The position numbers and the translations under genes were made by a program. The notes under the pieces are model-generated. The model did no database searches. It saw only the letters and a program-made list of their open reading frames with translations, and was not told where the DNA came from. From contig CBDBNP010000008.1 of the NCBI GenBank assembly GCA_965207865.1, positions 973,372 to 1,037,371 on the forward strand: a stretch of 64,000 nucleotides of DNA. Direction: 5' to 3'. This stretch comes from Dehalococcoidia bacterium (GTDB lineage: Bacteria > Chloroflexota > Dehalococcoidia > Lucifugimonadales > UBA3495). Below, one piece after another: positions 5,708 to 37,945 of the stretch (the first letter of the stretch is position 1; each line of letters starts with the position of its first letter).

Positions 5708-8700
5708 CTACCTCATAACGACGTAATTCCAGCCGGGGTACAGGGTGCGCCCTCGGAACTCCGTCCGACGGTCCACGCTGACTGCCAGGACGACCGGCGG
5801 GTTGGCGGCGAGGTCAACCGTCGTCAGCGTGTTGAACGCCGCGAGTTCCGGGTCAGGGTCGTAGAATTTCCACTGTTGGGACCGGCTGTCCAGCCACCAG
5901 ACCCTCTGCAATGCCCCGCTGGCAGCAAGCGCGCCGAAAATTTGCTGGACTGACTGGACACCGCTCCCCGGCTGTGGCGTGAGCGGGTCCTCCGTTAGCG
6001 GCACGAGGTTCCAGCCGGCGTAAAGTGGAAGGCCGCGGAATCGCTGGTTCCTGGTGACGTTAATGGCGACGACAGCCGGCGTATCCGATGCCAGGTTGAC
6101 CGTCCTCAGCGAGTTAAATGGCACCAACCGGGGCTCCGGATCATAGAACAGCCAGCTCTGATACCTCTCCACCAACCGCCAAACCCGGCCCAGTGTTCCG
6201 TTTGCCGAGAGTGGCTGGAACACCTGCTCAGCACGCTGAGTCGCAAGCGCCGGACGTGGCGGTGCCTGGGGAGCCGGGGGTACGATGAACCTTCCGCCCC
6301 CGCCACCAGTATTTCGCGGTGGTGGGGGTGGCGGAGGAGCCGCACTTGTGGTGCCTCTTCCGGTCGATGACCATCCTCCAGGGCCTGCAGAGTTTCTGGC
6401 ACGCACCTGGACCTCATACGTGGTGCTCGCGGAAAGGCCAGTAACTGTGTAGCTGCGACTGTTGCCAACGCTGACGGGTGACGGCCAGGAGATGCTGCCG
6501 TTCCGACGATAGCGTAGCTCGTAGCTCGTGGGCGAGGGCCCTCCCGACGGTGCCGACCACGTGATCCGCAGGCTGTTGGCAGACGCTGCGGTAACCGTCG
6601 GTGTCGAGGGCGTTCGTGGTATTACTGGGGGAGGCGGAGGCCCACCCTCGTCATCGTTGGTGATGGTGACTGTTGCGGTTGCCGCGCCACCAGTCAGGTA
6701 TGGAAGCCCTGAACTGGCGTAAGACAGTCTTACCGTAAAGCTTTCGTCCCCCTCGTCGTAGACGTCGTCCTGGACATCTACGATTATCTGTCTTTCAGCT
6801 CGATACCTCACTTCACCGCTAACGACCGTCGATGTGAAATCTGTGTGCAATATGGTTTCGGTTGCGCTCAAATGGGAGTAATCTGAGCCCTGCCGGGCAC
6901 TGCCCGCGCTCGTCGTAGCCCTTACGCTGAAGGAGACATCCGACAGCGGCGCCCCTTCCTCTGTAGTGGTGGCTTGGGCGTACATGATGACGCTCCCAGC
7001 GTCCTCGCTAACCGAATAGTCCGGCTGTTCCCAGCTCAAGGCTATCGGAACGAAATCGTCATCGGCGATCTTGACGGTGGCGATGGCCGAACCTCCCTGC
7101 AGGTGGAGTGGGCCGGGGTTGGCGTACTCAATCGTAACCGAGAGGTCCTCCTCGATTTCATCGGTGGTGTCGTCCACGATGGATACCGAGACCTGCTTTG
7201 CGGCGCGGTACCGGGGCTGGCCGTTGACGGTTGTGCGGCTAAAGTCGTTTCTGTCGAAGGTGATGGTATCGTCTACCTGCGTGTAATCGCCGGGCTGCGA
7301 CGCGGCGCCGTTTGCAGTGGAGACCGAAGCGTCGAAGGTGAAGCCGTCTTCCGGGCGCTTGTCCACGGTGGTGACAGCAAGAGCGCGCAGTGTGGCGCTG
7401 CCGTCGTCCTCGTCTACGGTAACGTCGGTCTGGTCCCAGCTGAGGGTCACCGGCACGTGCTCGTCGTCGTTGATTGTGATCGTCGCCGATTGCGGTCCTC
7501 CCCGGAGATGCGATAGCCCGGGAGTCTGGTAGTTCATTGTCACCCGGAAGTTTTCATCGGATTCGTCAGTAGTGTCGTCGTTGATGTCTATGGTGAAATC
7601 CCTGGTCGCTTGGTATAGCTGCTGCCCGTTAACGTCTGTCTGGCTGAAATCGCTGGCGACGAAGCTGGCCGAGGAGGGTGGAGGGGTGTAGTCGTCGGTC
7701 ACTGTCGTGCCGAGATCGGTGGTTGATAACACGAGCTCAAATTCAAAGTCGGCTTCGGGCGGCGCGTTAAGGGTGGTTGTGAACACCGCCGTCAGCTCCA
7801 CGCTGCCTACGTCCTCGTCTACTTCCAGCGTAGTCTCCTCCCACTGCATGGTGATGGGTATGTCGTCCGGCAGAGGGGTGCCGGTCCGGGTGCCGGACCA
7901 CTCCCCGTCGCCGGCGGAATTCACGGCCCGCACCTGCACGTCGTACTCCACGGCGTTGGTGAGGCTCCTGATTGTGTATTCCAGGTTGCCGCTTCTCCAG
8001 GCGTTATCCTGCACCGTCCAGTTGGAGTCCACCGTCTCGTCGGCGCTGGTCTCGATATACCGCACGTCGTAGGCGGTAATTCTCCCGCCTCCATTGTCGG
8101 AAGGCTCGGTCCAGGCAACGGCTAGTTCCCCGTCCCCACGAGTTACGTTGGTTATCGCTGGCGTCGACGGCTCGACAATGGTGGGCATGGCGGTCGTTAC
8201 CTCGGACCAAATGCCGATTCCCTCCGAATTGCGGGCCCGTACCTGAATTTCGTACTCGACGTTTCCTGAGAGACCCGTGATGCTGTGACTCCGGTTGCTG
8301 AGCGTTCCCACGCTGGTCTCTTCGGTCCAGTTGGCGTCACTCTTGTCTGTTGCATCCTTGCGTATGTAGCGCAGGTCGTAGGAGGTGACAGCGGACTTCC
8401 CGATGTCGGTAGGCTCCTTCCACTCGATGGTCAGGGTGCCCCCACTGGGCGTAACGTCATCAAAATCCGGCGCAGCCGGTTGGTAGCCATGGCCGTAGAT
8501 GGTGAGACCCCAGGACCTGAGACTTCCCGTCGTGCCTCTTTCCTCATCCCTTATACGCAGCGTCCACTCTCCGGCCGCAGCCTCGCCCAGAAATCGGGCG
8601 GAGCCGAAACGGAACTCTGAGGTCAAGCGGGCGTCGAGGGGGGCTGATGGAACCAGGGTGGAGACCTCTCCGGAGGGTGACTCCAACTCAACGTGTAGGT

Positions 8701-11632
8701 CGCGAAAACTGGAATGGTTGAAGTGGGTGTTGACCTCTACGAACTCGACGAAATCCACAAAGGAGCCTACGGTGAGGTTTGCCGTCACAGCGGTGGGCAT
8801 TCCCGATGTCGGGGCGTCCGGAATCGAAAGGTTGATGGCGCCTGATCCGGACGTTGTCTCCCGGAGAGGGGAGACGTTGTTCCAGCCCACGGCCAGGTCC
8901 GTGGCGGCCTTGGCGTCCACCATGCCGAAGCCGTACTCGTGGTTGAAGTCGTAGTGGTCCGTGGTGGAGCCGTACTTCAGCGCCCCCTGCTCCCAGCCGG
9001 TGTTGGCCGCGTCGTTCTTGCGGGCGGAGGCGGCCAGGATTAGCTTGACGTCCCGCCAGGTGAGGGCGGTGTTGGCCTCCCGCACCAGTGCAACTACGCC
9101 TGAGACGATGGGAGCGGCGGCGCTGGTGCCTCCCATCCGACCCCAGTACCTGTTGCCGTTGTCCGTGGTCGTTATTCTGGGCTGGCCGACTCTTCCGCTG
9201 CTGGAGGGGCCGCAGACCCACAGGTTGACGCCGGGCTCCGAGTAGTCGGCGCGCTTGTCGTCGTGGCCCACGGCGCAGACGGCAACGATGGCGTAGTAGT
9301 TGGCGATCTCGTCCAGGTTCGAGTCATCGTCATATTCGGCCCCGTTGCCAGCGGACCAGACGTAGACCACGCCTTTCCCGCCGTACCCGTTGGTTACGCC
9401 GTCCGTTACGGCCATTTCCCATGTTGAGACGACAGGGTTCGGCTCGCCGAAGTCCCTGGGCCCCCAGCTGTTGTTGGAAACGGCTGTGGTCTCGGAGTTG
9501 CGGGTCATGGCGTCTGCCCTGTTGGCGTCGCTCACTGCCTCAAGGTAGTTGTACCCGTAAATCGTGGCCTCGGGTGCCACGCCCCGCACTCCCTTGTCGT
9601 TGTCCTTTGCCGCGATAAGACCGGCCACCGCGGTGCCGTGCCATTCGAAATAGTCGTAAATGTCGGTATCGTCGGTGTTGTAGTTGTGATTCAGGGTGGT
9701 GTTCACATTGTCCTTGAGGTCCTCGTGGGTGTAGTGCATCCCGTCGTCCACCACCACCACGTTGATGCCGTCGCCGGTGTAGGTGGGCCACACATCCTCG
9801 ACCCCGATATCGAAACCGGCGCTGTTGCGGAACTGGTCGCTGTTGTTCAGGTGCCACTGGCATCCGTACAGGGGATCGTTGATGCCGGCGCTCCGGGAGA
9901 TGTTGCTGCAGCGGTCTTCGAAGTAGGTATACGAACCCTCCCGGATGGCCCTGACGGTGTAACGTCCGGTATCGGTGGCATCCTTGCCCTTCACCTTCAG
10001 GGTGTATGTGCCCGCGTCCAGCGTTCCCTGGAATACGAACCGGTCGCTGAAGTGAATCGAATCGACCGGGGCGTCGAAGTCGTTGGAATCTATGAGCTCG
10101 GCGCTGATATCGAGCCCCAGGCCCCGGCTCGTCCCTCCGATGATCACGTGGGTGGTCTCGTCCAGGGTCAGACTGAAATAGTCCTCATCCCCGGCAGGGC
10201 CGATCATGCCGCCAGCCACGTCGCCAAGGGTCAACTCCTGGGCATCGGCCTTCCTGCTGCCCGGCTCGGTGATGGTGTGGAGGTACACACTGAACGGCCC
10301 TTCGTATCTTTCGTCGAAGGAGCTGACGTTCAGATAGTAGGTCCCCGCCGCCAAGCTTCGCCGGATGAGAAAATTCCTGCTGCCGCCAGGAAGATAGCCG
10401 TCGTCATTGGATGCAACCAATTGGGAATTCCTGGTGTACAGCTTGCCCACGGTGTCCGGAAATCCGGACGACCGAATGGCAACCTCTGTAGTCTCTGCCA
10501 GAACTATTTTGAAGGAATCGGTTTCATCTTCAGGGTCAATGGTGCGACTGGCAGAGCCGTTTATAGGAATGGTGGGAGATTCGGTCCAACCTACGGGGTC
10601 CGGAAATGCCCGGACCCTGAGGGTGTATGGTTCGTCAGTGGCTCCGAACCCGGTGACCTTTACGTAATACGTGCCGGAATTGAGTTTGCGCCAAAGGAAG
10701 AAAGCTTCCGGGTTGGGTAAAACCCGGCCATAGTCGTTGCTCTTGATGAAATTGCCGTCGCTGTCCTGCAACTCACCCACCGTGTCGAGGTCTCCCTGGG
10801 TGTAAATCCAGTAGTCGGCAGTTTCTGACACGGTGAAGCTGACGTAGTCCTCGTCGTCACTGGGGTCGATAACGCCCCACACTCTGTCCCCTGCGGAGAT
10901 GCTGGTGGCGTTGGTGCGGTCGGCGCCATGATCGCCAGGGGTAGCGGCGGTGGTGGCCGACCATGCGCCGTCAACGTCGTCCTCATCGACGGCCCGCACC
11001 TGCACGTCGTAGCCAGTTTCGTTGGTCAGGCCGGTGATGGCGTGAAAGAGGCTGCCGTCTCCGTCCTCCCAGGCGTCCTCCTCCACGGTCCAGTTGGAAT
11101 CCACCGTTTCGTCGGAGCTGGTCTCGATGTGGCGCACGTCATAGGCCTTGACGCCGGTGGTGATGCCGGCAGGCGCACTCCAGGCGACGTAAACGGCGCG
11201 GTCATCGCCGCGCACGGTATCCAGGGAGGGCGCAGGGAGGGCCGGCGTCCCGACCGTCGTTGCGGACCATGCTCCGTCGCCGTTGGCGTTGACGGCCCGG
11301 ACCTGCACGTCGTATTGGGTGCCGTTGTCCAGACCGGTGATGGTGTACTCCAGCGCCCCGGAGGTCCAGGCGTTGTCGACCACGGTCCAGTTGGCGTCGG
11401 CTTTGTCTGTGGCATCGCTGTTAATGTGTCGCACGTCGTAGGCGGTGATGCCCGTTTCGCCGGTAGGAGCGGTCCACTCGACTTTGAGCTGCTTGTCATC
11501 CGAGGTTACGGAGTCAATGGTGGGCGCAGCGGGAGTCGTCTGAGCCCTGGCGTAGCCCAAGACCAGAATGAGGCATAGCAGAGCGCCCCCTGCCACGGCA
11601 GCAAGTCTTACCGGGCTGAGCCACGCGTTCAT
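5708..11632 (-). CDS. Giant secreted kexin-like subtilase (S8 + P-domain) with FN3, PPC-like and Calx-beta domains and a duplicated C-terminal module
   Basis: This is a 1974-aa ORF. In order it contains:
- an N-terminal signal (LLCLILVLGYARAQT)
- 2 FN3 domains
- 3 PPC-like jelly rolls (DEDY.., GTYY.KV)
- an S8 triad (VVVVDDG, WHGTAVAG, GGTSAAAPIVSG) with the kexin-type GCQWHLNN motif
- a P-domain (GEWTLRIRDEERGTTGSLRSWGLTIYGH)
- 2 FN3 domains
- 3 Calx-beta domains (DDTTDE..E.F)
- 1 FN3 domain
- a Pro/Gly linker
- two copies of a roughly 80-aa C-terminal module. Confidence 0.9.
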   Translation of the reverse strand: MNAWLSPVRLAAVAGGALLCLILVLGYARAQTTPAAPTIDSVTSDDKQLKVEWTAPTGETGITAYDVRHINSDATDKADANWTVVDNAWTSGALEYTITGLDNGTQYDVQVRAVNANGDGAWSATTVGTPALPAPSLDTVRGDDRAVYVAWSAPAGITTGVKAYDVRHIETSSDETVDSNWTVEEDAWEDGDGSLFHAITGLTNETGYDVQVRAVDEDDVDGAWSATTAATPGDHGADRTNATSISAGDRVWGVIDPSDDEDYVSFTVSETADYWIYTQGDLDTVGELQDSDGNFIKSNDYGRVLPNPEAFFLWRKLNSGTYYVKVTGFGATDEPYTLRVRAFPDPVGWTESPTIPINGSASRTIDPEDETDSFKIVLAETTEVAIRSSGFPDTVGKLYTRNSQLVASNDDGYLPGGSRNFLIRRSLAAGTYYLNVSSFDERYEGPFSVYLHTITEPGSRKADAQELTLGDVAGGMIGPAGDEDYFSLTLDETTHVIIGGTSRGLGLDISAELIDSNDFDAPVDSIHFSDRFVFQGTLDAGTYTLKVKGKDATDTGRYTVRAIREGSYTYFEDRCSNISRSAGINDPLYGCQWHLNNSDQFRNSAGFDIGVEDVWPTYTGDGINVVVVDDGMHYTHEDLKDNVNTTLNHNYNTDDTDIYDYFEWHGTAVAGLIAAKDNDKGVRGVAPEATIYGYNYLEAVSDANRADAMTRNSETTAVSNNSWGPRDFGEPNPVVSTWEMAVTDGVTNGYGGKGVVYVWSAGNGAEYDDDSNLDEIANYYAIVAVCAVGHDDKRADYSEPGVNLWVCGPSSSGRVGQPRITTTDNGNRYWGRMGGTSAAAPIVSGVVALVREANTALTWRDVKLILAASARKNDAANTGWEQGALKYGSTTDHYDFNHEYGFGMVDAKAATDLAVGWNNVSPLRETTSGSGAINLSIPDAPTSGMPTAVTANLTVGSFVDFVEFVEVNTHFNHSSFRDLHVELESPSGEVSTLVPSAPLDARLTSEFRFGSARFLGEAAAGEWTLRIRDEERGTTGSLRSWGLTIYGHGYQPAAPDFDDVTPSGGTLTIEWKEPTDIGKSAVTSYDLRYIRKDATDKSDANWTEETSVGTLSNRSHSITGLSGNVEYEIQVRARNSEGIGIWSEVTTAMPTIVEPSTPAITNVTRGDGELAVAWTEPSDNGGGRITAYDVRYIETSADETVDSNWTVQDNAWRSGNLEYTIRSLTNAVEYDVQVRAVNSAGDGEWSGTRTGTPLPDDIPITMQWEETTLEVDEDVGSVELTAVFTTTLNAPPEADFEFELVLSTTDLGTTVTDDYTPPPSSASFVASDFSQTDVNGQQLYQATRDFTIDINDDTTDESDENFRVTMNYQTPGLSHLRGGPQSATITINDDEHVPVTLSWDQTDVTVDEDDGSATLRALAVTTVDKRPEDGFTFDASVSTANGAASQPGDYTQVDDTITFDRNDFSRTTVNGQPRYRAAKQVSVSIVDDTTDEIEEDLSVTIEYANPGPLHLQGGSAIATVKIADDDFVPIALSWEQPDYSVSEDAGSVIMYAQATTTEEGAPLSDVSFSVRATTSAGSARQGSDYSHLSATETILHTDFTSTVVSGEVRYRAERQIIVDVQDDVYDEGDESFTVRLSYASSGLPYLTGGAATATVTITNDDEGGPPPPPVIPRTPSTPTVTAASANSLRITWSAPSGGPSPTSYELRYRRNGSISWPSPVSVGNSRSYTVTGLSASTTYEVQVRARNSAGPGGWSSTGRGTTSAAPPPPPPPRNTGGGGGRFIVPPAPQAPPRPALATQRAEQVFQPLSANGTLGRVWRLVERYQSWLFYDPEPRLVPFNSLRTVNLASDTPAVVAINVTRNQRFRGLPLYAGWNLVPLTEDPLTPQPGSGVQSVQQIFGALAASGALQRVWWLDSRSQQWKFYDPDPELAAFNTLTTVDLAANPPVVLAVSVDRRTEFRGRTLYPGWNYVVMR
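8484..9850 (-). other. S8 catalytic domain plus proprotein-convertase P-domain within the 5708-11632 gene
   Basis: The catalytic codons read directly as Asp 9746-9748 (first D of DDG), His 9638-9640 (WHGTA) and Ser 9122-9124 (GTSAA). The P-domain ends at LTIYGHGY, around 8484-8507. Confidence 0.8.
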
Positions 11633-13263: not shown

Positions 13264-14127
13264 TCAGTCCCAATGGGGCGGTGGATACGGCGTGTCGGTG
13301 GCGGTTGGTTCCTGTGTCGGCGTAGACAGGACAGGAGCAGTAATTACGTTGGGTTCACCCCAGCCTGAGTAAGAATGTAGCGTTTCCAGCCTTGTGTTGG
13401 GAGGTTGTACAATCGTCCTTTTGATTTGCACAAATCTCCCGGTAGTTGGGTCAATCCAAAAATCCTCTCTGCTATAGTTTTCCTCTGGCTGCGACTTTGA
13501 GGCGATTAAGTAGAAGTAATGCTTGGTATTCGTGCCGTTTATAATCTCTTCCCCAATGTACCCAGATGTTGTATCCGACACGTCATCGCTTAGCAAAGGG
13601 CGCCCACAGAAAGAAGCAGGAATTTCTTCAGAATCGGATTCGCCAGCTGCTCCAGACATATCAGCGAAGGGTGCTATATTATTCACGTCTGTTTTCCATT
13701 CGCCCCAAGTGCCTGTAGCGTCGGCACCGCGGTAGTATCTGGTTCTACTACCTGCACCACTACTCCCGCTGGCACCATCGGTATTATCGTTCCGGGTTGC
13801 TATTTCAATATGTTCAGCTTGGATCGACACACCTTCCTTTGTGGCAGTCAAAAGTCTATAGATATTTTCGCCTTGAATGCGCCAATTTTCATTACCAGTC
13901 ATGGATTCAGTGCCAAATGTAACAGTTCCCTGAATTGTGATGTCATAAGATGCCGTGTAGTTAGCGAACCCCAGGCAGGCATCCTCCACAGCTTCTTGTG
14001 CATCGATATAATCATCTTTTGAAGCCATCTGCCAAATAATTATGGCTATTACAGGCAATGTCACGACAAGCAGGGCACCTGCGAGTTGATGACGCTTTTG
14101 CCACATGTAAGGAATTAGCATATACAC
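13264..14127 (-). CDS. Hypothetical membrane-anchored protein (single N-terminal TM), low-GC gene; the C-terminus probably decayed
   Basis: This 287-aa ORF has a TM segment LAGALLVVTLPVIAIIIWQMA. It is visibly more AT-rich than its flanks. I recognised no family motif. Confidence 0.5.
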   Translation of the reverse strand: MYMLIPYMWQKRHQLAGALLVVTLPVIAIIIWQMASKDDYIDAQEAVEDACLGFANYTASYDITIQGTVTFGTESMTGNENWRIQGENIYRLLTATKEGVSIQAEHIEIATRNDNTDGASGSSGAGSRTRYYRGADATGTWGEWKTDVNNIAPFADMSGAAGESDSEEIPASFCGRPLLSDDVSDTTSGYIGEEIINGTNTKHYFYLIASKSQPEENYSREDFWIDPTTGRFVQIKRTIVQPPNTRLETLHSYSGWGEPNVITAPVLSTPTQEPTATDTPYPPPHWD

Positions 14128-14589: not shown

Positions 14590-17502
14590 TCATTGCAACT
14601 CGGAGGGCGGCCGGTACGCGGGCCTCTTACTCTGATAGCCCCAGCAGGCCACGCGGCCGTTGGTTCTCACTGCACAAGAAGCAATGTTGCCGGCGCTAAC
14701 ATCCACGAAGTCTGTGTTCGACGGCGTAGTGGAACGATCCTGGTACCCCCAGCAGTATGCTCGTCCGTCCGTTTTTATCCCACAGGTAGACGCAATCTCC
14801 GCTCGTTCTGCCACAACGGTGACTGCTACGAAGTCGGCATTTTCTTCTTCACTGGGCTTCTTGATGCTGGCTTCAACGCCCCAGCAGAGCATACTTCCGT
14901 CGGTTTTCACCCCACAGGCATAATGTTCGCCCACGCCTATGTCCCGGAAGCCGGTATTATCCTGCGGGAATCCATTTGTCACCCCCTGGCTGCCCCAGCA
15001 AAAGAGGGAGCTGTCCTGCTTCAACCCACAGAAATTGTCATCGCTGGACGATATGGCGGTGAAGGTCTTTGCTACTTTATCGGCCCCGGTGATCTCAGTT
15101 GGGAGATCGTCAATGGTTGATTGAAGGCCCCAACAGACCATGTTGCCGCTTATCTTCACTCCGCAGCTGACGCGGCTGCCGGCGACGACCAGGCGATAGT
15201 CGGTATTGGGGTTGGTCGCGTCGTCCGGAACCGTGGCCTCGCCTACATTGGTGTCGTATTCAGCCCCCCAGCAGGCAATGCTGCTATCCCGCCGCACGCC
15301 GCAGGCGTGATAACTCTGAGGGCCCATGCTGATGCTGGTGAAGGAGCCGGTTGCCACTTTGTCAACACCGTAGCCGTCACCATCCCAGCAGAGGACAGCG
15401 CCGTGGGGCTTCAGCACGCAAGCGGAGCCATAGCCGACGACAATGGTGTGTTCGGCGGTGGTCAGCGGCAGGGGCGGCGCCAGCGCCAGGACGGTATCCT
15501 TCCCCCAACAACTCACGCCGCCGTCCAGTTTGATTCCACAGGTATAGAAATCTCCTGCCGCGATGGAGGCGAAAGCGCCGTCCGGGGCCTGTAGCTTCTC
15601 GTCGGCAGTGTCGCCCCAACAAGTCACCTCACGGCTGCCCTCGACAATGCCGCAGGCGTGGGTCTTCGCCACCACCAGGTAGGCGAACACCGCATCCTCC
15701 GTGACCTGTAGCTTCTCGTCGGCAGTGTCGCCCCAACACATCACCTCGCGGCTGCCCTCGACAATGCCGCAGGCGTGGGTCTTCGCCACCACCAGGGAGG
15801 CGAACACCGCATCCTCAGTGACCTCGGTCCTGGGATTCATCGTGTCCCCCGACACGTTGCCCCAGCAGACCACACGTCCGCTGGCGTCCCGGGAGCAGGC
15901 AAAGTCCTCCCCCACTCCGAGGTCGTACGCCGGAATCAGTTCGGACGGCGGTGCGGACGCATCGCCTGGGTCGGCGTTCATATCGTCGGGGGGAGGACCA
16001 CCCCAGCAGACAACCAACCCGTCGGTCTTTCGCCCGCAGGCGTGATAATCGCCCACGGCGAAAGCGATGAACGTAGCGTCGGGGACGGCCAGTTTGTCCT
16101 GGCCGGCATCGCCCCAGCAAACTACCGTGCCGTCGCTCTTGCTTCCGCAGGCGTGACCGGCGCCGGCCGCCACAGTGGAGAAGTCCGTGTTGCTCGACGG
16201 CGTGCTGGTGAACGCGCCCCAGCACGATACTGCACCCCCAGAAGCCTTAACGGCGCAGGAAAAGTTCTTGCCGGCGGCCACCGTACCGAAGCCGGAATTG
16301 GACGCGGGAAGAGTGGTTTCTCTTTCCGTATTGTCGCCCCAGCAATCCAGGATCCCGTCGGTTTTTGCGCCGCATGCATGGTCGTGGCCAACACTGACCG
16401 TGGCGAAACCGCTGGTGTCGGTGGGCGTATCGGAACGGGCGCCCCAGCAGACCAGGGTTCCATCGTCCTTGACCCCGCAGGCATGGTCGTTTCCCACACT
16501 CAGCATGTCGAACTCGGAGTTGCTGGCCGGGGTGTCCACACGACTGCCCCAGCAGACCACGCTGTCGTCGGTTTTGAGGCCGCACGCATGGCTGCCGGCG
16601 CTCACCGCCTCGAATAAATGACCCGATGGGGCAATGACCGGTGAGTCGGCTGCTCCGCCCCAGCATTGCACGGCCCGATCGGGAGTGATGGCGCAGGAGA
16701 AGTTGCTGCCGGCGGCTACCGACTGGCCCTGGGCAGGAGTGACCATCGGCAGCAATGAACCTGCTTCGCCTCGCGGGCCAGCTTCCCCCTGTGGGCCGGA
16801 GGGACCGGCAGGCCCCGGTGGACCGGCAACGCCGGGCGGGCCAGGCTCCCCTTTTGGCCCGGGGGAACCGGGCGGTCCGGCAGGCCCTCGTGGGCCGGGC
16901 TCCCCCTGTGGCCCGGGTGAACCAGGAGGCCCAGGAGGCCCCGCAGAGCCACTTCCGCCACCGCTGGGGCCTTGAGGCCCCTGTGGACCGGCGGGTCCGG
17001 TAGAGCCACCGCCACCGCCACCGCCGCCGCTGGGTCCTTGTGGCCCCTGTGGCCCAGTAGGCCCGACGGGGCCGGTGTCTCCTGGCGGACCAGACGGGCC
17101 GCGTTCTCCGGCTATTCCGGGAACTCCTGTTGGGCCAGGAAGACCGTCCAAGCCGGCGGGGCCCTCAGGCCCTGAGCGACCACGATCTCCCCTGTCGCCC
17201 TTCTCTCCCTTCGGCCCCGGTACCCCGGTGGCTCCGGGCGGGCCCGGTGGCCCAGCAGAACCTGGAACTCCCGCTGAGCCGGTGAGTCCACGTGGGCCGG
17301 GTGGGCCCTCGGGCCCCATAAGACCGGGAGCACCCGTATCGCCCTTTTGTCCCGTCGGGCCGGGCACCCCCGTAGCCCCGGGCGGTGAGTCCGGAAACGC
17401 GTCGGTAGAATCCTCGCCGAGAAGGCCACATCCTGAGACGAACAACGCTACAGCAAGTATTAGCAGCCTAGGAACTACGCGGCGTGGGGGGGGAAATTTC
17501 AC
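14590..17502 (-). CDS. Lipoprotein with a collagen-like triple-helix region and about 18 RCC1-like beta-propeller repeats
   Basis: This 970-aa ORF has the lipobox [10 protein letters not shown]. About 205 aa of uninterrupted G-X-Y repeats follow, apart from two Gly runs. After that come 18 repeats of the form h.aG..HACG.K.DG.vvCWG. Confidence 0.85.
15589..15822. repeat. 117-bp tandem duplication (2 copies, a few mismatches) inside the RCC1-like region
   Basis: Copy 1 (15589-15705) and copy 2 (15706-15822) both start ctgtagcttctcgtcggcagtgtcgcccc. They encode VTEDAVFA[S/Y][18 protein letters not shown][M/T][11 protein letters not shown] twice. Confidence 0.9.
16759..17379 (-). other. Collagen-like G-X-Y region of the 14590-17502 gene
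   Basis: Residues 42-248 read [19 protein letters not shown]...[13 protein letters not shown]. This region produces the Pro/Gly-rich shadow ORFs listed on both strands there. Confidence 0.85.
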
Positions 17503-18345: not shown

Positions 18346-20700
18346 GTGAGCAGCAACAGCCAACCGGAGCGGGAGATCGAGGCTCTGCGGGAGCGGATCG
18401 CCGCCCTCTCCAATGCCATCCTGCGGGTGAACGCCAGCCTGGACGTCGACACCGTACTGCACGAGATCGCCGAGTCTGCCCGCGCGCTGACAGGGGCCCG
18501 CTTAGCCGTCATAGCCACCATTGACGAGGCCCGGGCACTGGAGCACATCGTCCTCTCTGGCTTGACCCCGGAAGAGACGCGGCAGGTTGAGGGGTGGACC
18601 GACGCTCTGCGAGTCTTCGAGGTTCTGCGGGACGTGCCGTCGCCCTTGCGGGTGGCGGACATGCCCACTTATATCGCGTACATGGGCTTCAATCCCGATG
18701 GCGTAATCATCAATTCCTTCTTGGGAGCGCCCATACACCACCGGGGCGTACAGGTGGGCAACTTCTTTCTGGGGGAGAAGCAGACCGGTCCTGAGTTCAC
18801 CGACGAGGACGAGGAGGTGCTGGTGCTGTTCGCGGCGCAGGCGGCCTCGGCGGTGGCCAACGCCCGCACCCACCGGGCCGAGCAGGGGGCGCGAGCGGAC
18901 CTGGAGGCCCTGATCGAGACCTCGCCAGTGGGCGTGGTGGTGTTCGACGCCCGCAGCGGGCGGCCGGTGTCGATGAACCGGGAGGCGCGGCGCCTGGCCG
19001 CGCGCCTGCTCCCGGCTGGCGGCCCAGCGGAGGAGGTGGTACAGGTGGCCACCTGCCGCTTCTCCGACGGGACCGAAATCTTGGTCAGCGAGTTGACAAA
19101 TCCCCGAGCACTGGCTAAAGCCCGGACGCTGCGGGCCGAGGAGATAGTGACCTCGGTCCCCGATGGGCGGAGCTTCACCACGCTGGTCAACGTGACTCCC
19201 ATCTATTATGGGACTGGGGATGAGGTCAAATCAGTGGTGGTGACGCTGCAGGACCTGGCGCCGCTCCAGGAACTGGAACGGTTGCGGGCGGACTTCCTGG
19301 GTATGGTGAGCCACGAGTTGCGTGGCCCGCTCACCGCCATCAAGGGCTCGGCCGCCACCCTGATGGAGGAATCCGACCGGCTGGACCCGGCGGAACAGCA
19401 CGAGTTCCATCGCATTATCCAGGAGCAGGCCGACCACATGCGGGGGCTCATCGGCGACCTGCTGGATGCCGGGCGCATCGAGGCGGGCACACTGTCGGTG
19501 GCTCCCGAGCCCTCCGAGGTGGCCGCGCTGGTGGAGGGCTCGCGCAGCACCTTCCTGTCCGCTGGCGGACGGCATACCGTGATCATCGACCTGCCACCGG
19601 ACCTGCCCCGCGTGATGGCCGACCGGCGGCGCATAGTGCAGGTGCTGAACAACCTGCTCTTCAACGCCGCCCGGCACTCGCCCGACTCTGCCCCCATTCG
19701 GGTTGAAGCCGTGCGCGACGGCTCGCAAGTTGCCATCTCCGTCCGGGACGAGGGGCGGGGTGTGGCCCCGGAGCAGCTGCCCCACCTGTTCCGCAGGTAC
19801 GCCCTCGACGACGAGGACGGCGGCCGGGCGATGGCTGGCATGGGCCTGGGTCTCATCATATGCCGGGGGCTGGTTGAGGCCCACGGCGGCCGCATCCGGG
19901 CCGAGAGTGGCGGGACCGGTCAGGGCGCCCGGTTCACCTTCACCTTGCCCGTGGCCGAGGATGCCCGGCAGAGCGAGCCCTCAGCCTTGGCACAGTCGCC
20001 CGGCACACCTCCGGCGAGCGAGACTGCCCGCATCCTGGTGGTGGACGACGACCCGCAGACCCTGCGCTACGTGCGCCACACGCTCACCGAGGCGGGCTAT
20101 GCCGTGGCAGTGACGGGCGACCACGAGCACCTCTCCCGCACCGTCCGCGCCGAGAGGCCGCACCTGGTCCTGCTCGACCTGGTGCTGCACGGCGCCGACG
20201 GCATCGAGCTGCTGAGAAGCGTCCCCGAGCTGGCCGGTCTGCCGGTGGTATTCATCTCCGGCTACGGACGGGACGAGACCGTCGCCGAGGCCCTGAGGGC
20301 CGGGGCCGCCGACTACCTGGTCAAGCCCTTCTCGTCCACCGAGCTGACCGCTCGCGTGGGGGCGGCGCTGCGCCGGGCCACCCGCCCCGAGCCCTTCGCC
20401 CTGGGAGAGTTGGCCATCTACTACGAGGATCGGCGGGTGACAGTGGCCGGTCGCCCGGTCGAGCTGACCGCGACGGAATTCGCGCTTCTGCGCCTGCTCT
20501 CGCAGAATGCGGGACGTGTGGTGGATTACGAAACCCTGCTAGGCCAGGTGTGGAGCGGACGCAAGGAGGGGCAGGTCAACCTGGTGCGCAACTTCGTCAG
20601 GAAGCTTCGCGCCAAGCTGGGCGACGACGCCCAGAGCCCGGCCTGGATATTCAGTGTGCGCGGCATCGGTTACCGCATGCCCGACCCCCGCGACCCCTGA
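18346..20700 (+). CDS. Fused sensor histidine kinase, receiver and OmpR/PhoB-type winged-helix DNA-binding domain (GAF-PAS-HisKA-HATPase-REC-wHTH)
   Basis: This 784-aa ORF starts at a GTG. Motifs read by eye are:
- a GAF-like N-terminus
- the H-box FLGMVSHELRGPLTAI
- N/G boxes VLNNLLFNAARHS and GMGLGLIICRGLVEAHGG
- the receiver ILVVDDDP..LVLLDLVL..KPF
- the C-terminal LTATEFALLRLLSQNAGRVV...VRGIGYRM. Confidence 0.85.
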   Translation: MSSNSQPEREIEALRERIAALSNAILRVNASLDVDTVLHEIAESARALTGARLAVIATIDEARALEHIVLSGLTPEETRQVEGWTDALRVFEVLRDVPSPLRVADMPTYIAYMGFNPDGVIINSFLGAPIHHRGVQVGNFFLGEKQTGPEFTDEDEEVLVLFAAQAASAVANARTHRAEQGARADLEALIETSPVGVVVFDARSGRPVSMNREARRLAARLLPAGGPAEEVVQVATCRFSDGTEILVSELTNPRALAKARTLRAEEIVTSVPDGRSFTTLVNVTPIYYGTGDEVKSVVVTLQDLAPLQELERLRADFLGMVSHELRGPLTAIKGSAATLMEESDRLDPAEQHEFHRIIQEQADHMRGLIGDLLDAGRIEAGTLSVAPEPSEVAALVEGSRSTFLSAGGRHTVIIDLPPDLPRVMADRRRIVQVLNNLLFNAARHSPDSAPIRVEAVRDGSQVAISVRDEGRGVAPEQLPHLFRRYALDDEDGGRAMAGMGLGLIICRGLVEAHGGRIRAESGGTGQGARFTFTLPVAEDARQSEPSALAQSPGTPPASETARILVVDDDPQTLRYVRHTLTEAGYAVAVTGDHEHLSRTVRAERPHLVLLDLVLHGADGIELLRSVPELAGLPVVFISGYGRDETVAEALRAGAADYLVKPFSSTELTARVGAALRRATRPEPFALGELAIYYEDRRVTVAGRPVELTATEFALLRLLSQNAGRVVDYETLLGQVWSGRKEGQVNLVRNFVRKLRAKLGDDAQSPAWIFSVRGIGYRMPDPRDP

Positions 20701-20782
20701 TGGGCCGGCGCTTGCTGGTTGGACCCAAACAAGGCCGCGCCGAATGCGAACGAGGCAGGCGCCGTCCCGATCGGGAAAATAT

Positions 20783-21098
20783 ATCTACCGCGTTAACCTG
20801 GCTCCTCGCGTCGACAATGCCCTGTTTCTCAATCAACCCGGATTCAACCTGCTGGTCATCGACGAGCTGGGCTTCGTCCCCCTGTCCCGCACTGGGACGG
20901 AGTTGCTCTTCGAGGTCTTCAGCCAGCGCTACGAGCGGGGCTCCCTCATGGTAGCTACCAACCTGCCCCTTGATGGGTGGACCGTGGTCGTCGGCTCGGA
21001 ACGGCTCATCGGGGCCCTGTTGGACCGCCTCACCCAATACGTCCACTTCCCGGAAATGAACGGTGAAAGCTATCGCCTCAAACACAGCAGGGAGAATG
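20783..21098 (+). pseudogene. IS21-family IstB helper ATPase, C-terminal remnant
   Basis: The frame reads NLLVIDELGFVPLSRTGTELLFEVFSQRYERGSLMVATNLPLDGWTVVVGSERLIGALLDRLTQYVHFPEMNGESYRLK, which covers IstB Walker B through the C-terminus. There is no Walker A region, no istA gene and no inverted repeats. Confidence 0.75.
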
Positions 21099-21110
21099 AC
21101 GCTTTCCAAA

Positions 21111-21234
21111 CCCCAGTCCCTCTGAGGGGGAGGGAATCCTGCAACTCCTGTGGCAGTACGCCCTCACCCCAGCCCTCTCCCGAAGGGAGAGGGAACCTTT
21201 TGGCGAAACGGGAATCTTTTCGCCAGTACAGGAC
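21111..21234. repeat. REP-like palindromic elements (family 1, two hairpins) between convergent genes
   Basis: The region contains ccctctgagggggaggg and a perfect hairpin, ccctctccc (21173-21181) pairing with gggagaggg (21185-21193). The shared tail GGGAACCTTTT follows. Confidence 0.75.
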
Positions 21235-21236
21235 GA

Positions 21237-22436
21237 CTAGGCGGCCTCGTAGGGCTGCAGTTGGATCTCCTTGAGGGCCGGGATGACCTCTTTGCCCAGC
21301 AGCTCGATGGAGCGCATGCAGTCCTCGTGGGGCATGGGGCCCTCGTTGCCGTAGATCAGCAGGTAGCCGGGATTGAGCTTCTCCACGACCCATTGCAGCT
21401 GCTCGATTACAGAGTCGGGCGAACCGACGATGATGGTGCGGTGGTCCTTCTGCAGATCGTAGGACTGGGGGTCGCCGGCGTTGCCGGCAAATGCGCCGGA
21501 GGGTCGGCTGCGCTTGATCTGGAGGGCCTGGCGGGACTGGTATCCGGGCGGGTCGACGTGCTCCCGGGGACCGCGCTGGCGATGCCCCTCGGTCCACACG
21601 AAGTTGCGTCCGATTTCATCGGCCTTCTCGTCAGTATCGGCGACAAAGACCTTGAGCAGGTAGCCGAAGTGCTCGGGGCCGGGCTGATAGCCCGCTTCAA
21701 GTGCGGTGTCGATGTAGATGCTCTTGAGCCACTCGGTGGTCTCCATGACTGCGCCGAGGTTCATGTACGGGTGGCCGTGCTGCGCCGCCCAGACCACGCT
21801 CTCCGGGCTGCCGGTGCCTGGGAACCAGATGTCGGGCCGTGGCTGCTGCATGGGCAGCACCCAGGGATTGACGGCCCGGTACTGGTAGTACTTGCCTTCG
21901 TAGCGGAAGGGACCTGGCGTGGTCCAGCATTTCACGATCAGGTCGTGGGCTTCCTCGAACCGCTCCCGGTTCTGCGTCGGGTCGATGCCGGCCTGCAGGG
22001 TCTCCACGGCGCCGCCACGCACGAAGCCGGAGATGATCCGACCGCCGGAGTAGCAGTCCAGCATGGCGATCTCTTCGGCCATGCGGATGGGATCGTTGAC
22101 GGCGATGACGTTGCCCAGGATGGCTATCTTGGCCCGCTTGGTCACTTTGGCGATGACGGCGGCGTCCAGGTTCACCGCTGGCTTGCCGCACCAGTAGGCG
22201 GCGTGGTGCTCGTTGGTCATGATCCCGTCGAATCCGACCTCGTCGGCCAGGGCGTACTGGTCGTGGTACTCGTTGTACAGGATGTGGGCCTTGTCGGGAT
22301 CGAAAAACGTGTTGGGGAAACCCAGGCGTCCCGAGTCGAACTGCTCCAGCTGGGCGTCGCCTACGTAGCCCTGGGGCTGCTCGGAGAACCAGTAGACCTC
22401 CACCTGGTCTTTGGGGCGGGCCAGTTGATCAACCAT
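21237..22436 (-). CDS. LLM-class (luciferase-like) flavin-dependent oxidoreductase
   Basis: This 399-aa ORF has the typical LLM pattern FDGIMTNEHHAAYW and the overall layout of that family. Confidence 0.75.
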   Translation of the reverse strand: MVDQLARPKDQVEVYWFSEQPQGYVGDAQLEQFDSGRLGFPNTFFDPDKAHILYNEYHDQYALADEVGFDGIMTNEHHAAYWCGKPAVNLDAAVIAKVTKRAKIAILGNVIAVNDPIRMAEEIAMLDCYSGGRIISGFVRGGAVETLQAGIDPTQNRERFEEAHDLIVKCWTTPGPFRYEGKYYQYRAVNPWVLPMQQPRPDIWFPGTGSPESVVWAAQHGHPYMNLGAVMETTEWLKSIYIDTALEAGYQPGPEHFGYLLKVFVADTDEKADEIGRNFVWTEGHRQRGPREHVDPPGYQSRQALQIKRSRPSGAFAGNAGDPQSYDLQKDHRTIIVGSPDSVIEQLQWVVEKLNPGYLLIYGNEGPMPHEDCMRSIELLGKEVIPALKEIQLQPYEAA

Positions 22437-30493: not shown

Positions 30494-31721
30494 CAGGGTC
30501 ATTCGATTATTGATCGAAAATGGGGATGGGGTGTCTTGGGGATGATGATGAGGGAGTAGTAAGGTAGGGGGAGTGAGTGTGAGAGGGGTGTGTGGAATGG
30601 GCAATGAAAGGGAGAATATCGGGGGCCTGTCGTTACTGGAGGTCATGGGGAGATTGCCGGACCCTCGGAGCGGGCATGGCCGGCGCCATCCTCTGGGGGC
30701 GGTTCTTGGGTTGGCGGTGTGCGCCATGCTGTGTGGCGCCCGCAGCCTGTATGCCATCAGCCAGTGGGGCCGGGATCAGGGCCGGGAGGTATCGGAGGCA
30801 CTGGGCTTCACCCGGAGTCGTACTCCCTGCGTATCCACGTTGCATCAGGTATTCAGCCGGCTGGACCGGGAGGCCTTCGAGCTGCTGTTGGGTCAATGGC
30901 TAAAGGAGCGGGGACTGGAGGCTGGGGAGGCACTGGCCATAGACGGAAAGAGATTGCGTGGAATTCACGGAGAGCAATTGCCTGGGGTCCACTTGGTGGC
31001 GGCCTATGCCCACCGGTCGGGTATCGTGGTGGGTCAACAGGCAGTGGCGCACAAGAGGAATGAACTGGAGGCGGTACACCGGCTCTTGGATCGGTTGGAC
31101 CTGCAAGGCCAGGTGGTGACGGGAGACGCCCAGTTCACCCAGCGGAAGGTGTGCCGCAGTATCGTGGCAAAAGGGGGCACTACCTCCTCTCGGTAAAGGA
31201 CAATCAACCCACCTTGAAACAGGACATTGCCGACCTCTGGGAGGAGGCTATGGCACCGCAGGCAGAGCAGGTAGGCCGGCACGGGGACCGGGTGGAGGTG
31301 CGGCGCATCTGGGTGTCGGATGAACTGGCAGGCTACAGCGACTGGCCCCACCTGGCCCAGGTGTGTCGTGTGGAACGTATCGTCCACCACAAAGGCAAGA
31401 CCCGCCGGGAACTCGCGTATGCCGTAACCAGCCTCGGTCCCAATGAGGCTGACCCTGCCAGGCTGCTGCAACTGTGGCGGGGTCATTGGGGGATCGAAAA
31501 CCGGGTGTTCTGGGTACGGGATGTGACCATGGATGAGGACCGCTGCCAGGTAAGATCGGGTTCAGCCCCTCAAGTGATGGCCGGACTGCGCAATCTGGTC
31601 ATCAGTCTCTTGAGAATGGAAAAGGTGCCCAACATCGCCGCCGCACTCCGTCGCTGCGCCACCAGACCCTCCTATCCCTTGTCTCTCGTCGGCGCCCCTA
31701 CCCAATAATCGAAAGACCCTG
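30494..31721 (+). mobile_element. ISAs1-family insertion sequence (1228 bp) with 19-bp terminal inverted repeats and a 10-bp target-site duplication
   Basis: The left IR is cagggtcattcgattattg (30494-30512). The right IR is caataatcgaaagaccctg (31703-31721), giving 18 of 19 complementary positions. The direct repeat tagtgtaggg is found at 30484-30493 and 31722-31731. Confidence 0.88.
30573..31708 (+). pseudogene. ISAs1-family transposase, split by a 1-nt frameshift at an A4G5 run
   Basis: The N-terminal part reads LLEVMGRLPDPRSGHGRRHPLGAVLGL...DGKRLRG...VTGDAQFTQRKVCRSIVAKGG. The frame then changes at gcaaaagggggcac (about 31165-31178) into HYLLSVKDNQPTL...LWRGHWGIENRVFWVRDVTMDEDRCQVRSG. Confidence 0.8.
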
Positions 31722-32311
31722 TAGTGTAGGGCAAGCTGCTTGCGAGCATCAGTACTGAGGTGCCACGGCATTCCCTCCCACGGCACCGGACGCATCATGT
31801 CAACAATCGAAAGCTCGCCACGATGGCGATTCAATGGACGATCGAGAATACACTGGAATCTGCTGCTTCTGGAGTGGCTTTATCAGTGGTAGTTTTCTCG
31901 CAGACAGATGCCCCGCCTCGCGCTTCTCGATTCACCTTTCTGAAAGGGCTTCTATGGTACAGTCCGCCTCTGAGAAACTCGACAAGGCCTGAGTGCCACT
32001 TGCCTGAGATGGAAGCTAGTCGATTTACGGGGCTGGACAAACTTACATGCTCACCACGCTCCGGAGGGTAGGGCGCCAATCACCAATTTTGGAGACGCCT
32101 TTATCTGAGTGGTAGGTGAAACTGGAGTGCCATTCCAGAGGGGCAAAATGTAACGCCTTTCAGCGAGTGGCAAGGATGACTTCAGAGAAACCGATTTACC
32201 TGCACACTCCAAGTTTTCGAGCGAACAGATGCACGTGGAACAGTTGGCATTGACAAACGATTTGATCAATGAAATATAGTTTGTGAGTAATTGAAGGAGC
32301 CTGCAATTGAC

Positions 32312-33307
32312 ATGTCGACCCTAGCTGGCTTTCGACAGATAAACGATCTGGTGGAAAAGGAGGCGCGGTTCGTCCAGGTGCTGGACGCCGAGATCCGCAA
32401 GGCGATAATCGGCCAGGACCGTCTGGTGGAGCGTGCCCTGGTAGCCCTGCTTGCTGACGGGCACATTCTGCTGGAGGGCGTGCCGGGACTGGCAAAGACA
32501 TTGCTGGTCAAGACCATCGGGCAGGCGATCCAGGCCGGGTTCTCCCGCATCCAGTTCACTCCCGACCTGCTTCCTTCCGATCTTATCGGCACGCGGATAT
32601 ACAACCCCCGAACGGGGGAGTTCAGCGTCCAGAAAGGACCGGTCTTCTCCAACCTGATCCTGGCAGACGAGGTGAACCGGGCGCCGGCCAAGGTGCAAAG
32701 CGCGTTGCTGGAAGCGATGCAGGAGGGACAGGTTACGATCGGGGACGAAACCTTCCCGATCGATGCTCCGTTCCTGGTGCTGGCGACCCAGAACCCCATT
32801 GAGCAGGAGGGTACCTACCCGCTCCCTGAGGCGCAGGTGGACCGTTTTATGCTCAAGGTGATCGTGGATTACCCGTCGCGTTCCGAGGAAAGGGAGATCA
32901 TCGACCGCATGACGTCGGGCGCGCCGCTGAACGTGCAGCCCGTGGTGGACGCCCATTACATCATGAGCGCCCGGGAAATCGTCCGCCAGGTGTACGTGGA
33001 CGAAAAGATCAAGGATTATGTGCTCGACCTTGTGATTGCGACCAGGAACCCCGCGGCGGTAGGCCTCGACAACCTGGTGAACCTGATCTCATTCGGCGCG
33101 TCTCCCCGGGCCGGCATCTTCCTGATAGCCGCCGCCCGGGCCTATGCCTTCGTCAAGGGGCGAGGCTATGTCGTGCCCGACGACATCAAGCAGCTCGCGC
33201 CAGACGTGCTGCGACACCGGGTCATAACGACCTTCGAGGCCGAGGCCCAGGATGTGACAAGCGAGCAAATAGTCCAGCGCATACTGGACAACGTCGAAGT
33301 GCCGTAG
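32312..33307 (+). CDS. MoxR-family AAA+ ATPase
   Basis: The motifs are Walker A LLEGVPGLAKT, Walker B NLILADEVNRA, and VLATQNPIEQEGTYPLPEAQVDRF. I place the start at ATG 32312; the ORF track starts at a TTG at 32291. Confidence 0.9.
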   Translation: MSTLAGFRQINDLVEKEARFVQVLDAEIRKAIIGQDRLVERALVALLADGHILLEGVPGLAKTLLVKTIGQAIQAGFSRIQFTPDLLPSDLIGTRIYNPRTGEFSVQKGPVFSNLILADEVNRAPAKVQSALLEAMQEGQVTIGDETFPIDAPFLVLATQNPIEQEGTYPLPEAQVDRFMLKVIVDYPSRSEEREIIDRMTSGAPLNVQPVVDAHYIMSAREIVRQVYVDEKIKDYVLDLVIATRNPAAVGLDNLVNLISFGASPRAGIFLIAAARAYAFVKGRGYVVPDDIKQLAPDVLRHRVITTFEAEAQDVTSEQIVQRILDNVEVP

Positions 33308-36233: not shown

Positions 36234-36238
36234 CCGCC

Positions 36239-37276: not shown

Positions 37277-37277
37277 A

Positions 37278-37937
37278 ATGATTGACCTCAGAGTTCTGGT
37301 CGCTGCGATGCTCCTTGCCGCTTGCCTGCTGGCCTGTGGGCCCACACCGGCTCAGGTCAACAATGCGGGCCATGATGCGTACCTGACCGATGACTATGCC
37401 ACAGCCCTGGAGTCCTATCAGGCCGCGCAGCTTCGCGCTCCCGAGTCCGGTGAGCCCTATTACAACTCAGGCAACGCGCTGTACCGAACGGAGGATTACG
37501 AGGAGGCGTTGCAAAGCTACGACGAGTCGCTGCGGCACGCCGGCGGAGAGTTGCGGTCGCGTGGGTTTTTCAACCGCGGCAACGCCGCCTTCCGGCAGGA
37601 AAATTATCCCGACGCCGTGGAGGCATACGAAGAGGTGTTGCGAATGAACCCGGACGACCTCGACGCCAAACACAACCTGGAACTTGCCTTGCGGCGGATG
37701 TCCCCAGAGGACGAGCAACAGCAGGAGGAACAACAGGACGAGGAGGAGCAAGAGCAGCAAGAGGAAGAGGAGCAAGAAGAGGAACAGGACGCAGAATCGC
37801 AGGAACAGGATCAGCCCATAACAGAGACCCAAGCCCGTCAGATCCTGGAATCAGTGGGCGAAGCCGCACAGACCCTTCAGGAACGCCGGGATCAGGTGCT
37901 GGTCTCCCCCAAGCCTCCCAGCGAATTCGACTGGTAG
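37278..37937 (+). CDS. TPR-repeat lipoprotein with an acidic Glu/Gln-rich tail (BatC-like)
   Basis: An ATG at 37278 lies 8 nt after GGAGGG. The protein has the lipobox LLACG, TPR motifs (YNSGNALYRTEDYEEALQSY, FNRGNAAFRQENYPDAVEAY), and the run EDEQQQEEQQDEEEQEQQEEEEQEEEQD. Confidence 0.8.
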   Translation: MIDLRVLVAAMLLAACLLACGPTPAQVNNAGHDAYLTDDYATALESYQAAQLRAPESGEPYYNSGNALYRTEDYEEALQSYDESLRHAGGELRSRGFFNRGNAAFRQENYPDAVEAYEEVLRMNPDDLDAKHNLELALRRMSPEDEQQQEEQQDEEEQEQQEEEEQEEEQDAESQEQDQPITETQARQILESVGEAAQTLQERRDQVLVSPKPPSEFDW

Positions 37938-37945
37938 CCGAATAC

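Follow-up and report, generated by a model that had tools for sequence, protein, structure and literature searches.

A putative Dehalococcoidia lipoprotein joining a collagen-like stalk to an 18-blade RCC1_2 propeller head

Introduction

Bacterial collagen-like surface proteins are an established class, represented by Streptococcus Scl1/Scl2, Bacillus BclA and Legionella Lcl, in which a secreted and surface-anchored chain carries a hydroxyproline-free (G-X-Y)n stalk of strain-variable length together with a globular domain. In BclA the anchor lies at the N-terminus and the globular head at the C-terminus. A functional analogy is offered by C1q, the collectins, the ficolins and MARCO/SR-A, all of which place C-terminal recognition heads on a kinked trimeric collagen stalk, MARCO/SR-A being tethered to the membrane at the N-terminus. 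Here we analyze a gene from a Dehalococcoidia bacterium (phylum Chloroflexota, assembly GCA_965207865.1), located in a 64,000-nucleotide stretch of contig CBDBNP010000008.1 (positions 973,372 to 1,037,371 of the forward strand; hereafter the window), whose 970-residue product combines a lipobox, a collagen-like stalk and 18 propeller blades of the RCC1_2 family. An earlier sequence-only reading of the window had drawn attention to this gene and described both of its parts as eukaryote-like modules. That description goes too far, given that RCC1_2 propellers are very common secreted bacterial modules and that the stalk has its counterparts in the class just named.

The behavior of such stalks in isolation has been studied with recombinant proteins. 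All eight bacterial collagens expressed so far (8/8) formed stable triple helices without hydroxyproline, with melting temperatures of 35-39 C, and Scl2 folds efficiently only with its V domain (PMC4066190). As for the blades, the closest described structures are BLIP-II of Streptomyces exfoliatus (PDB 1jtd, 3qhy, 3qi0), which is a secreted, free, single seven-bladed propeller of three-stranded blades, and the ectodomain propellers of the plant CRINKLY4 receptor kinases ACR4 and PpCR4 (PDB 7a0j, 7a0k), the pore in CR4 being filled by an N-terminal strand. In ACR4 one disulfide locks each blade, which was read as an adaptation to the extracellular milieu; the cysteine pair behind it was described as unique to plant CRINKLY4 propellers, and BLIP-II has no conserved per-blade disulfide pattern (bioRxiv 10.1101/2020.08.10.245050).

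Results

A conserved gene under selection

The gene is a 2913-nucleotide open reading frame (ORF) with a GTG start, taken from a program-made ORF list; its parts are collected in Table 1. The antisense ORFs that overlap it arise as a side effect of the G/C-rich sequence that encodes the collagen part. An exact-sequence look-up of the 970-residue protein gave no match. The closest ortholog (L002), recovered by a scan that covered one genome per GTDB species, is found on OZ247426.1, the closed 4.74-Mb chromosome of a Dehalococcoidia metagenome-assembled genome. It encodes 949 residues, is 95% identical to the window gene in nucleotides and 94.5% in amino acids, and has in common with it the lipobox, the collagen tract, the blades and the neighboring genes. 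The collagen parts of these two copies have a Nei-Gojobori dN/dS of 0.31, and their propellers one of 0.27. A second ortholog (L001), from an ENA contig of a 2x-coverage assembly, keeps the architecture at 57-64% amino acid identity, and its collagen part is broken by frameshifts. The third (L007, positions 5755-9989 of the plus strand of the 186-kb JGI contig Ga0209754_1000045; identical in L008) is about 50% identical in amino acids and has a lipobox, 80 triplets, blades arranged 7+3+7 and a C-terminal extension that contains fn3. This copy carries an in-frame TAG at L007:6307, at a Y position of the collagen tract, and its reading frame shifts at a run of six T (T6) near 8450-8470; it would be either a pseudogene or a victim of sequencing errors.

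The gene is thus genuine, conserved and under selection. It is neither an assembly chimera nor a one-off, because the same architecture recurs in L002, L001 and L007/L008. The sequence-only reading had allowed that the G-X-Y stretch might prove to be an assembly artifact; the recurrence of the tract, in frame, in these independent assemblies speaks otherwise.

The N-terminus of the protein consists of a positively charged n-region, a 13-residue hydrophobic core and the lipobox V-S-G-C ending at Cys25, so that the lipobox proposed from the letters alone is upheld. The lipoprotein pattern [LVI][ASTVI][GAS]C accordingly falls within the first ~35 residues, and the lipobox is kept in L002, while L007 has an analogous one, ILGAC. 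Six ORFs in the window have a lipobox, this gene included, one of them encoding an SBP_bac_5 solute-binding protein; the five others suggest that the lipoprotein pathway is in use in the organism. At the other end the protein stops 15 residues past blade 18, with no LPXTG, other anchor motif or further Pfam domain in its tail. Neither a prolyl hydroxylase nor a sortase gene was found within the 64-kb window.

The collagen-like stalk

The stalk comprises 69 G-X-Y triplets over 209 residues (residues 42-250) in three runs of 42, 5 and 22 triplets, 64 of them regular. The runs are parted by single-residue register breaks, T168 and S184, which lie beside Gly-only triplets and are both present in L002 as well; these are the two poly-Gly hinges that the sequence-only reading had placed in a tract of about 205 residues. 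Proline makes up 41% of the X and Y positions and charged residues 19%, with nine GPP triplets, and a 54-nucleotide internal repeat was detected by Tandem Repeats Finder (TRF) at 16838-16941, within the third segment. The Pfam Collagen profile (PF01391), a search proposed with that reading, matches at 85.7 bits against a cut-off of 27.2 (E=1.9e-24).

The pattern of divergence is highly asymmetric among the three triplet positions. In the comparison with L007, none of the 60 glycines is changed (0/60), against 35/60 X and 44/61 Y residues; in the much closer comparison with L002 the corresponding figures are 0/64, 4/64 and 6/64. Moreover, every insertion or deletion in the tract among the orthologs is a whole number of triplets (3, 3 and 18 residues), L002 having six extra triplets in the third segment, and tract length ranges from 69 to 80 triplets. 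A triple helix is expected to constrain glycine in this way, whereas a generic, merely flexible spacer could do without a glycine in every triplet. The invariance of Gly and the triplet-sized indels therefore argue for a true triple helix. At 0.286 nm per residue, such a helix would span ~59 nm in the window protein; the L002 and L007 tracts would reach 64 and 69 nm.

In its general design the protein resembles Scl1/Scl2, BclA and Lcl, and it differs from them in lacking LPXTG, a V-type trimerization domain and a C1q-like head, and in having instead a lipobox anchor and an 18-blade RCC1_2 head, the latter being found in no described member. The NCBIfam models for Scl2, Scl1 and Lcl (NF038329, NF038330, NF046116) match only the collagen repeats, with 86, 62 and 74 bits against equivalog cut-offs of 325, 400 and 500, respectively. 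Membership in the Scl/Lcl families is ruled out by these scores and by the absence of LPXTG.

Blades of the RCC1_2 type

Residues 252-955 contain exactly 18 CW[G/D] motifs, each with a partner cysteine 10-11 residues upstream, and the 37 cysteines of the protein are accounted for by these 18 pairs plus the lipobox cysteine. The 18 CWG-type blades counted in the sequence-only reading are therefore all there, and they were also called RCC1-like, which is right in one sense only. Pfam RCC1_2 (PF13540) recognizes the region at 225.3 bits against a cut-off of 22 (E=1.7e-68, 15 stretches), so the repeats do not escape RCC1-type profiles, whereas canonical RCC1 (PF00415) gives no match even at E<=1 and the whole-domain profile WD40_RLD (PF25390) reaches 102 bits, below its cut-off of 150. 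Membership in the canonical RCC1 family is ruled out on these grounds; the blades are of the short, three-stranded, two-cysteine RCC1_2 type seen in BLIP-II and CRINKLY4.

Structural comparison gives the same ranking. The closest PDB entries by sequence are Arabidopsis ACR4 and Physcomitrella CR4 (E=2e-20 and 5e-20), followed by Streptomyces BLIP-II (E=2e-15), and Foldseek places CR4/ACR4 first, then BLIP-II, then UVR8/RCC1-like folds, with the structures of RCC1, UVR8 and HERC2 all below BLIP-II and CR4. An AlphaFold2 model of residues 252-970 has 18 three-stranded blades at a predicted local distance difference test score (pLDDT) of 79.5, and a second model, of residues 502-970, has a pLDDT of 79 and a predicted template modeling score (pTM) of 0.62. 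Full-length BLIP-II superposes on the latter with TMt 0.74-0.76 and a root-mean-square deviation of 2.7-3.0 A over ~282 columns, which supports the predicted closed seven-bladed propeller fold and does not extend to the middle 3-4 blades. The window protein is thus predicted to share with BLIP-II a secreted seven-bladed propeller of three-stranded blades, but it differs in its 7+4+7 arrangement, its two cysteines per blade, its collagen stalk and its lipid anchor. With ACR4/PpCR4 it shares a predicted extracellular location and the same C...CWG cysteine pair; unlike CRINKLY4, however, it is bacterial and multi-propeller, and by Pfam has no TNFR-like cysteine-rich domain, transmembrane helix or kinase.

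Both blade cysteines are present in 18/18 blades and align with the disulfide cysteines of ACR4. Among the bacterial RCC1_2 homologs that we retrieved, this pair never varies, and it aligns with the cysteines of PDB 7a0j. The disulfide-locked blade may, to judge from these alignments, be a widespread bacterial extracellular design rather than a plant-specific one.

Two seven-blade propellers and a variable middle

The sequence-only reading had judged the blades to be enough for two or three propellers, and they resolve into two seven-blade units with a four-blade insert between them. We favor this 7+4+7 layout because blades 1-7 (residues 252-501) align over their full length and in register with blades 12-18 (residues 677-955) at 32% identity (E=6e-40), because blade arrays in 381 homologs peak sharply at 7 (113 arrays) and 14 (72), because most database matches align best to residues ~261-503, their best stretches mostly ending at residues ~501-504, and because both AlphaFold2 models have low-confidence Pro-rich linkers after blade 7 and after blade 11. 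The in-register self-alignment speaks against an arrangement as 6+6+6 or as a single giant ring, and so do the linkers and the superposition of BLIP-II. Homologs do not typically have as many as 17 or 18 blades in an array.

The three orthologs have the layout 7+3+7. The fourth middle blade of the window protein is made by an in-frame tandem duplication of 117 nucleotides that is not shared by L002, L001 or L007. Copy 1 matches the one copy in L002 at all positions (117/117), and five substitutions, S->Y and M->T among them, distinguish copy 2. Mis-assembly is ruled out as the source of the extra blade, given that the two copies have diverged (5/117 nucleotides) while copy 1 is identical to L002. 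By this sequence comparison, the extra blade is a real and already diverging duplication, a strain-level change in blade number from 17 to 18.

The three parts of the head evolve at different rates. Identity to the orthologs is 67-73% for propeller 1, 62-69% for the middle blades and 44-55% for propeller 3, and against L007 it is 44% for propeller 3 versus 67% for propeller 1. Propeller 1 is the most conserved part of the whole protein, and the distal propeller 3 is the fastest evolving.

A rare combination

Given the low-complexity words of the stalk, the full-length homology search was dominated by collagens, and only one protein, P0001, was both RCC1_2-bearing and collagen-rich. A collagen domain was absent from the top matches of the propeller-only search, of the exhaustive full-length search of 1.84 billion representatives, and of the search with a second fusion (L033) described below. 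Likewise, a collagen-like run occurred in 0/318 retrieved proteins with at least four CWG units. The true homologs of the head are SLH-anchored or secreted RCC1_2 proteins of Chloroflexota and other bacteria, 28-37% identical over 70-99% of the propeller region; they have arrays of 7 or 14 blades, are evidently surface-located or secreted, and lack the collagen tract. The usual partners of RCC1_2 propellers are SLH, Ig-like, fn3, Calx-beta and peptidase domains.

One independent fusion was found on the unrelated metagenome contig Ga0316626_10026077 (L033, 1447-2994, plus strand). It encodes 515 residues in the order signal or transmembrane segment, N-terminal domain of ~100 residues, 24 G-X-Y triplets, short linker and one seven-blade propeller, with Pfam scores of 48.9 bits for Collagen and 206 bits for RCC1_2. 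The fusion has thus arisen at least twice, yet it is rare. The literature that we searched on the combination and on PF13540 in bacteria contained no description of it, which agrees with the statement of the sequence-only reading that it has no described function.

Genomic context

Upstream and divergent lies a gene (18346-20700, plus strand) for a 784-residue hybrid with GAF, (PAS), HisKA, HATPase, receiver and OmpR-type Trans_reg_C domains, that is, a two-component system in one protein. Downstream on the same strand, after a gap of 462 nucleotides, is a gene (13264-14127, minus strand) for a 287-residue protein with an N-terminal membrane anchor, which is 95% identical in L002 and has no Pfam, PHROG or PDB match. 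Both neighbors are conserved only in L002 and are absent beside the L001 and L007 orthologs. They were considered as operon partners and rejected, being conserved only in this 95%-identical genome. No informative terminator or promoter signals were found around the gene, which appears from its surroundings to stand alone.

Besides TPR proteins, the rest of the window encodes many large secreted proteins and lipoproteins, built of fn3, Calx-beta, CARDB, LRR, NHL and subtilase/P-domain modules. They include a giant secreted protein of 1974 residues (5708-11632, minus strand) with an S8 subtilase domain, a proprotein-convertase P-domain, four fn3 domains and Calx-beta, and a giant lipoprotein of 2051 residues (43310-49465, minus strand) with five CARDB domains, fn3, S8, LRR and F5/8-type-C. 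Three consecutive genes encode ankyrin-repeat proteins of 372, 278 and 380 residues (40307-43259, minus strand). The ankyrin, LRR, NHL, fn3, TPR and Calx-beta content is reminiscent of host-associated bacteria and may resemble that of sponge symbionts. Also present are a Bat (aerotolerance-like) cluster (32291-40146, plus strand) of a MoxR AAA ATPase, DUF58, two VWA/BatA-like proteins, a TPR lipoprotein, BatD and another TPR protein, and mobile-element genes, namely an IstB-like ATPase fragment and two DDE transposases (20654-21274, 30573-31196 and 50470-52299, plus strand).

Table 1. Parts of the collagen-RCC1_2 gene, in window coordinates; residue numbers refer to the 970-residue protein
Feature	Position	Strand	Basis
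Whole gene: putative lipoprotein, collagen-like stalk and 18 RCC1_2 blades	14590..17502	-	ORF list, Pfam, dN/dS
Signal peptide with lipobox, residues 1-25	17428..17502	-	Sequence pattern
Short acidic/Pro linker from putative lipid anchor to first triplet, residues 26-41	17380..17427	-	Translation
Collagen-like segment 1, residues 42-167; 39 regular triplets, then GGG GGG GGS	17002..17379	-	G-X-Y run; Pfam best stretch residues 40-93
Collagen-like segment 2, residues 169-183; 5 triplets	16954..16998	-	G-X-Y run
Collagen-like segment 3, residues 185-250; 22 triplets, GPP-rich, adjoins propellers	16753..16950	-	G-X-Y run
Propeller 1, blades 1-7, residues 252-501	16000..16749	-	Homolog alignments, self-alignment, Foldseek
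Pro-rich linker and middle blades 8-11, residues 502-667	15502..15999	-	Low-pLDDT linkers on either side
Tandem 117-nucleotide duplication, blades 9 and 10	15591..15824	-	TRF period 117, 2.1 copies
Linker and propeller 3, blades 12-18, residues 668-955	14638..15501	-	Self-alignment, BLIP-II superposition
C-terminal tail, residues 956-970	14593..14637	-	Translation
Stop codon	14590-14592	-	ORF list

Discussion

The protein is best placed among the bacterial collagen-like surface proteins, its head belonging to the RCC1_2 propellers, a secreted family of wide distribution. We propose that it is a membrane-tethered trimeric stalk displaying ligand-binding propellers beyond the envelope, and thus an adhesin or receptor, a reading to which we assign a probability of roughly 0.55. 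Taking the frame, the selection acting on it and the predicted fold as established, we infer lipidation, trimerization, disulfide formation, surface exposure and binding as follows. After Sec export, Cys25 of the lipobox would be lipidated, anchoring the chain in the outer leaflet of the cytoplasmic membrane. Three chains would then wind their ~64 regular triplets into a hydroxyproline-free triple helix of ~55-60 nm, which would bend flexibly at two points, the Gly-rich register breaks of one residue each. Each chain would carry a head of two closed, predicted seven-bladed propellers parted by 3-4 extra blades, each blade being probably locked by a Cys-x10-Cys disulfide as in CRINKLY4. The trimer would in this way present six closed propellers and three partial arrays as a multivalent head for a protein or glycan ligand, in a layout topologically like that of BclA, MARCO/SR-A or the collectins, and the most variable distal propeller would be the expected ligand-contacting tip. 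Surface display would be favored by the company that homologous propellers keep, which are mostly fused to SLH, to Ig-like/fn3 domains or to secreted peptidases.

Several observations weigh against this proposal. No recognizable trimerization or nucleation domain flanks the collagen tract in Pfam or NCBIfam; possible substitutes would be co-localization of the chains through their lipid anchors, or nucleation at the GPP-rich segment near the propellers. The 3-4 middle blades cannot close a ring alone, and no role accounts for them. The stop codon and frameshift of L007 suggest that the gene may be dispensable in some populations. Genes for Lgt/Lsp and for Dsb/VKOR were not found within the 64-kb window, and the context gives no clue to function, the neighbors being kept only in a nearly identical genome.

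Of the alternatives, the one that survives best, and which we nevertheless hold to be unlikely, is that the G-X-Y tract serves a single chain as an extended, protease-resistant, polyproline-II-like tether, allowing its propellers to reach through the envelope. The lack of a detectable trimerization domain suits such a monomeric tether, as do the Gly-only stretches and the two register breaks that interrupt the helix, and the tract length that varies freely among orthologs. It would not, however, explain why glycine never changes where ~65% of the X and Y residues do, nor why every indel is a whole triplet, and the uniform behavior of the bacterial collagens tested so far (PMC4066190) also points to a triple helix.

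Rather less probable still is a purely structural role, in which densely packed trimers would form a hair-like nap or fibrillar layer without a specific ligand, as BclA does on the Bacillus exosporium. The topology matches that of BclA, and tract length is polymorphic between strains in both. Yet a coat would hardly call for large multi-propeller heads of a protein-binding fold, the one that gives BLIP-II its picomolar affinity for beta-lactamase (title of PDB 3qhy/3qi0), and the fastest divergence, in the distal propeller, suits ligand contact better than packing. The gene is, moreover, single-copy in the window, with no assembly genes nearby.

A more elaborate form of the receptor idea, which we offer as speculation with a low chance of being right, would make the protein a bacterial counterpart of the collectins and C1q. 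The middle 3-4 blades of three chains would together form an inter-chain propeller or collar that acts as the trimerization node, and the six disulfide-locked propellers would bind a ligand of a host or partner, tracked by changes in the distal copy and in blade number (17 versus 18). Such a protein could mediate host-symbiont recognition by Dehalococcoidia that are rich in ankyrin, LRR, fn3 and NHL proteins. The parallel has its limits: unlike in C1q, the collectins and MARCO, the heads are non-homologous to theirs, a putative lipid anchor stands in place of a type-II transmembrane helix, nothing points to higher-order bouquets, and the protein is bacterial.

Quite improbable, in our judgment, is a tethered inhibitor or decoy, with BLIP-II-like propellers neutralizing the secreted hydrolases of hosts or competitors away from the membrane. 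BLIP-II is indeed one of the two closest solved structures, but at 22-27% identity the likeness goes no further than fold and family, and members of the family occur in fusion with many unrelated modules. BLIP-II also lacks the per-blade disulfide pattern, and the genomic context has no sign of hydrolase antagonism.

Finally, an origin as a chimera, decaying gene or prophage tail-fiber cargo is largely refuted: the lesions in L001 and L007, the match of PHROG tail-fiber families to residues 18-264 and the extra blade, in principle a possible assembly error, are outweighed by frames of 949-970 residues that are unbroken in two independent assemblies, of which one is a closed chromosome, by an omega of ~0.3, and by blade copies that diverge in a manner unlike a collapsed or expanded repeat. 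A phage tail fiber was specifically rejected, given that the PHROG matches are confined to the collagen repeats, that the sole match on a viral contig is collagen-only and that no phage genes lie nearby, the neighbors being the hybrid kinase, the 287-residue membrane protein and a subtilase.

As regards novelty, both modules and the "stalk plus head" design were already known; what is unusual is the lipid anchor, the 7+3/4+7 layout and the change in blade copy number. The finding opens no long-standing question, and the function that we propose is inferential. Hydroxyproline-free, Pro-rich bacterial collagens are also of interest as recombinant biomaterials (PMC4066190). The gene further provides a natural experiment in propeller evolution, in that one strain has added a fourth blade to the middle of a conserved 7+3+7 array and that blades which cannot close a ring alone are still conserved at 62-69% identity. 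If the stalk does form a triple helix, no collagen-like surface protein would have been described from Chloroflexota before this one, nor any that has a lipid anchor and a multi-propeller RCC1_2 head in place of the LPXTG/V-domain or C1q-like modules of those studied. The pairing of a collagen stalk with a recognition head, familiar from animal innate immunity and Gram-positive pathogens, would then extend to an uncultured lineage that is environmental or possibly host-associated.

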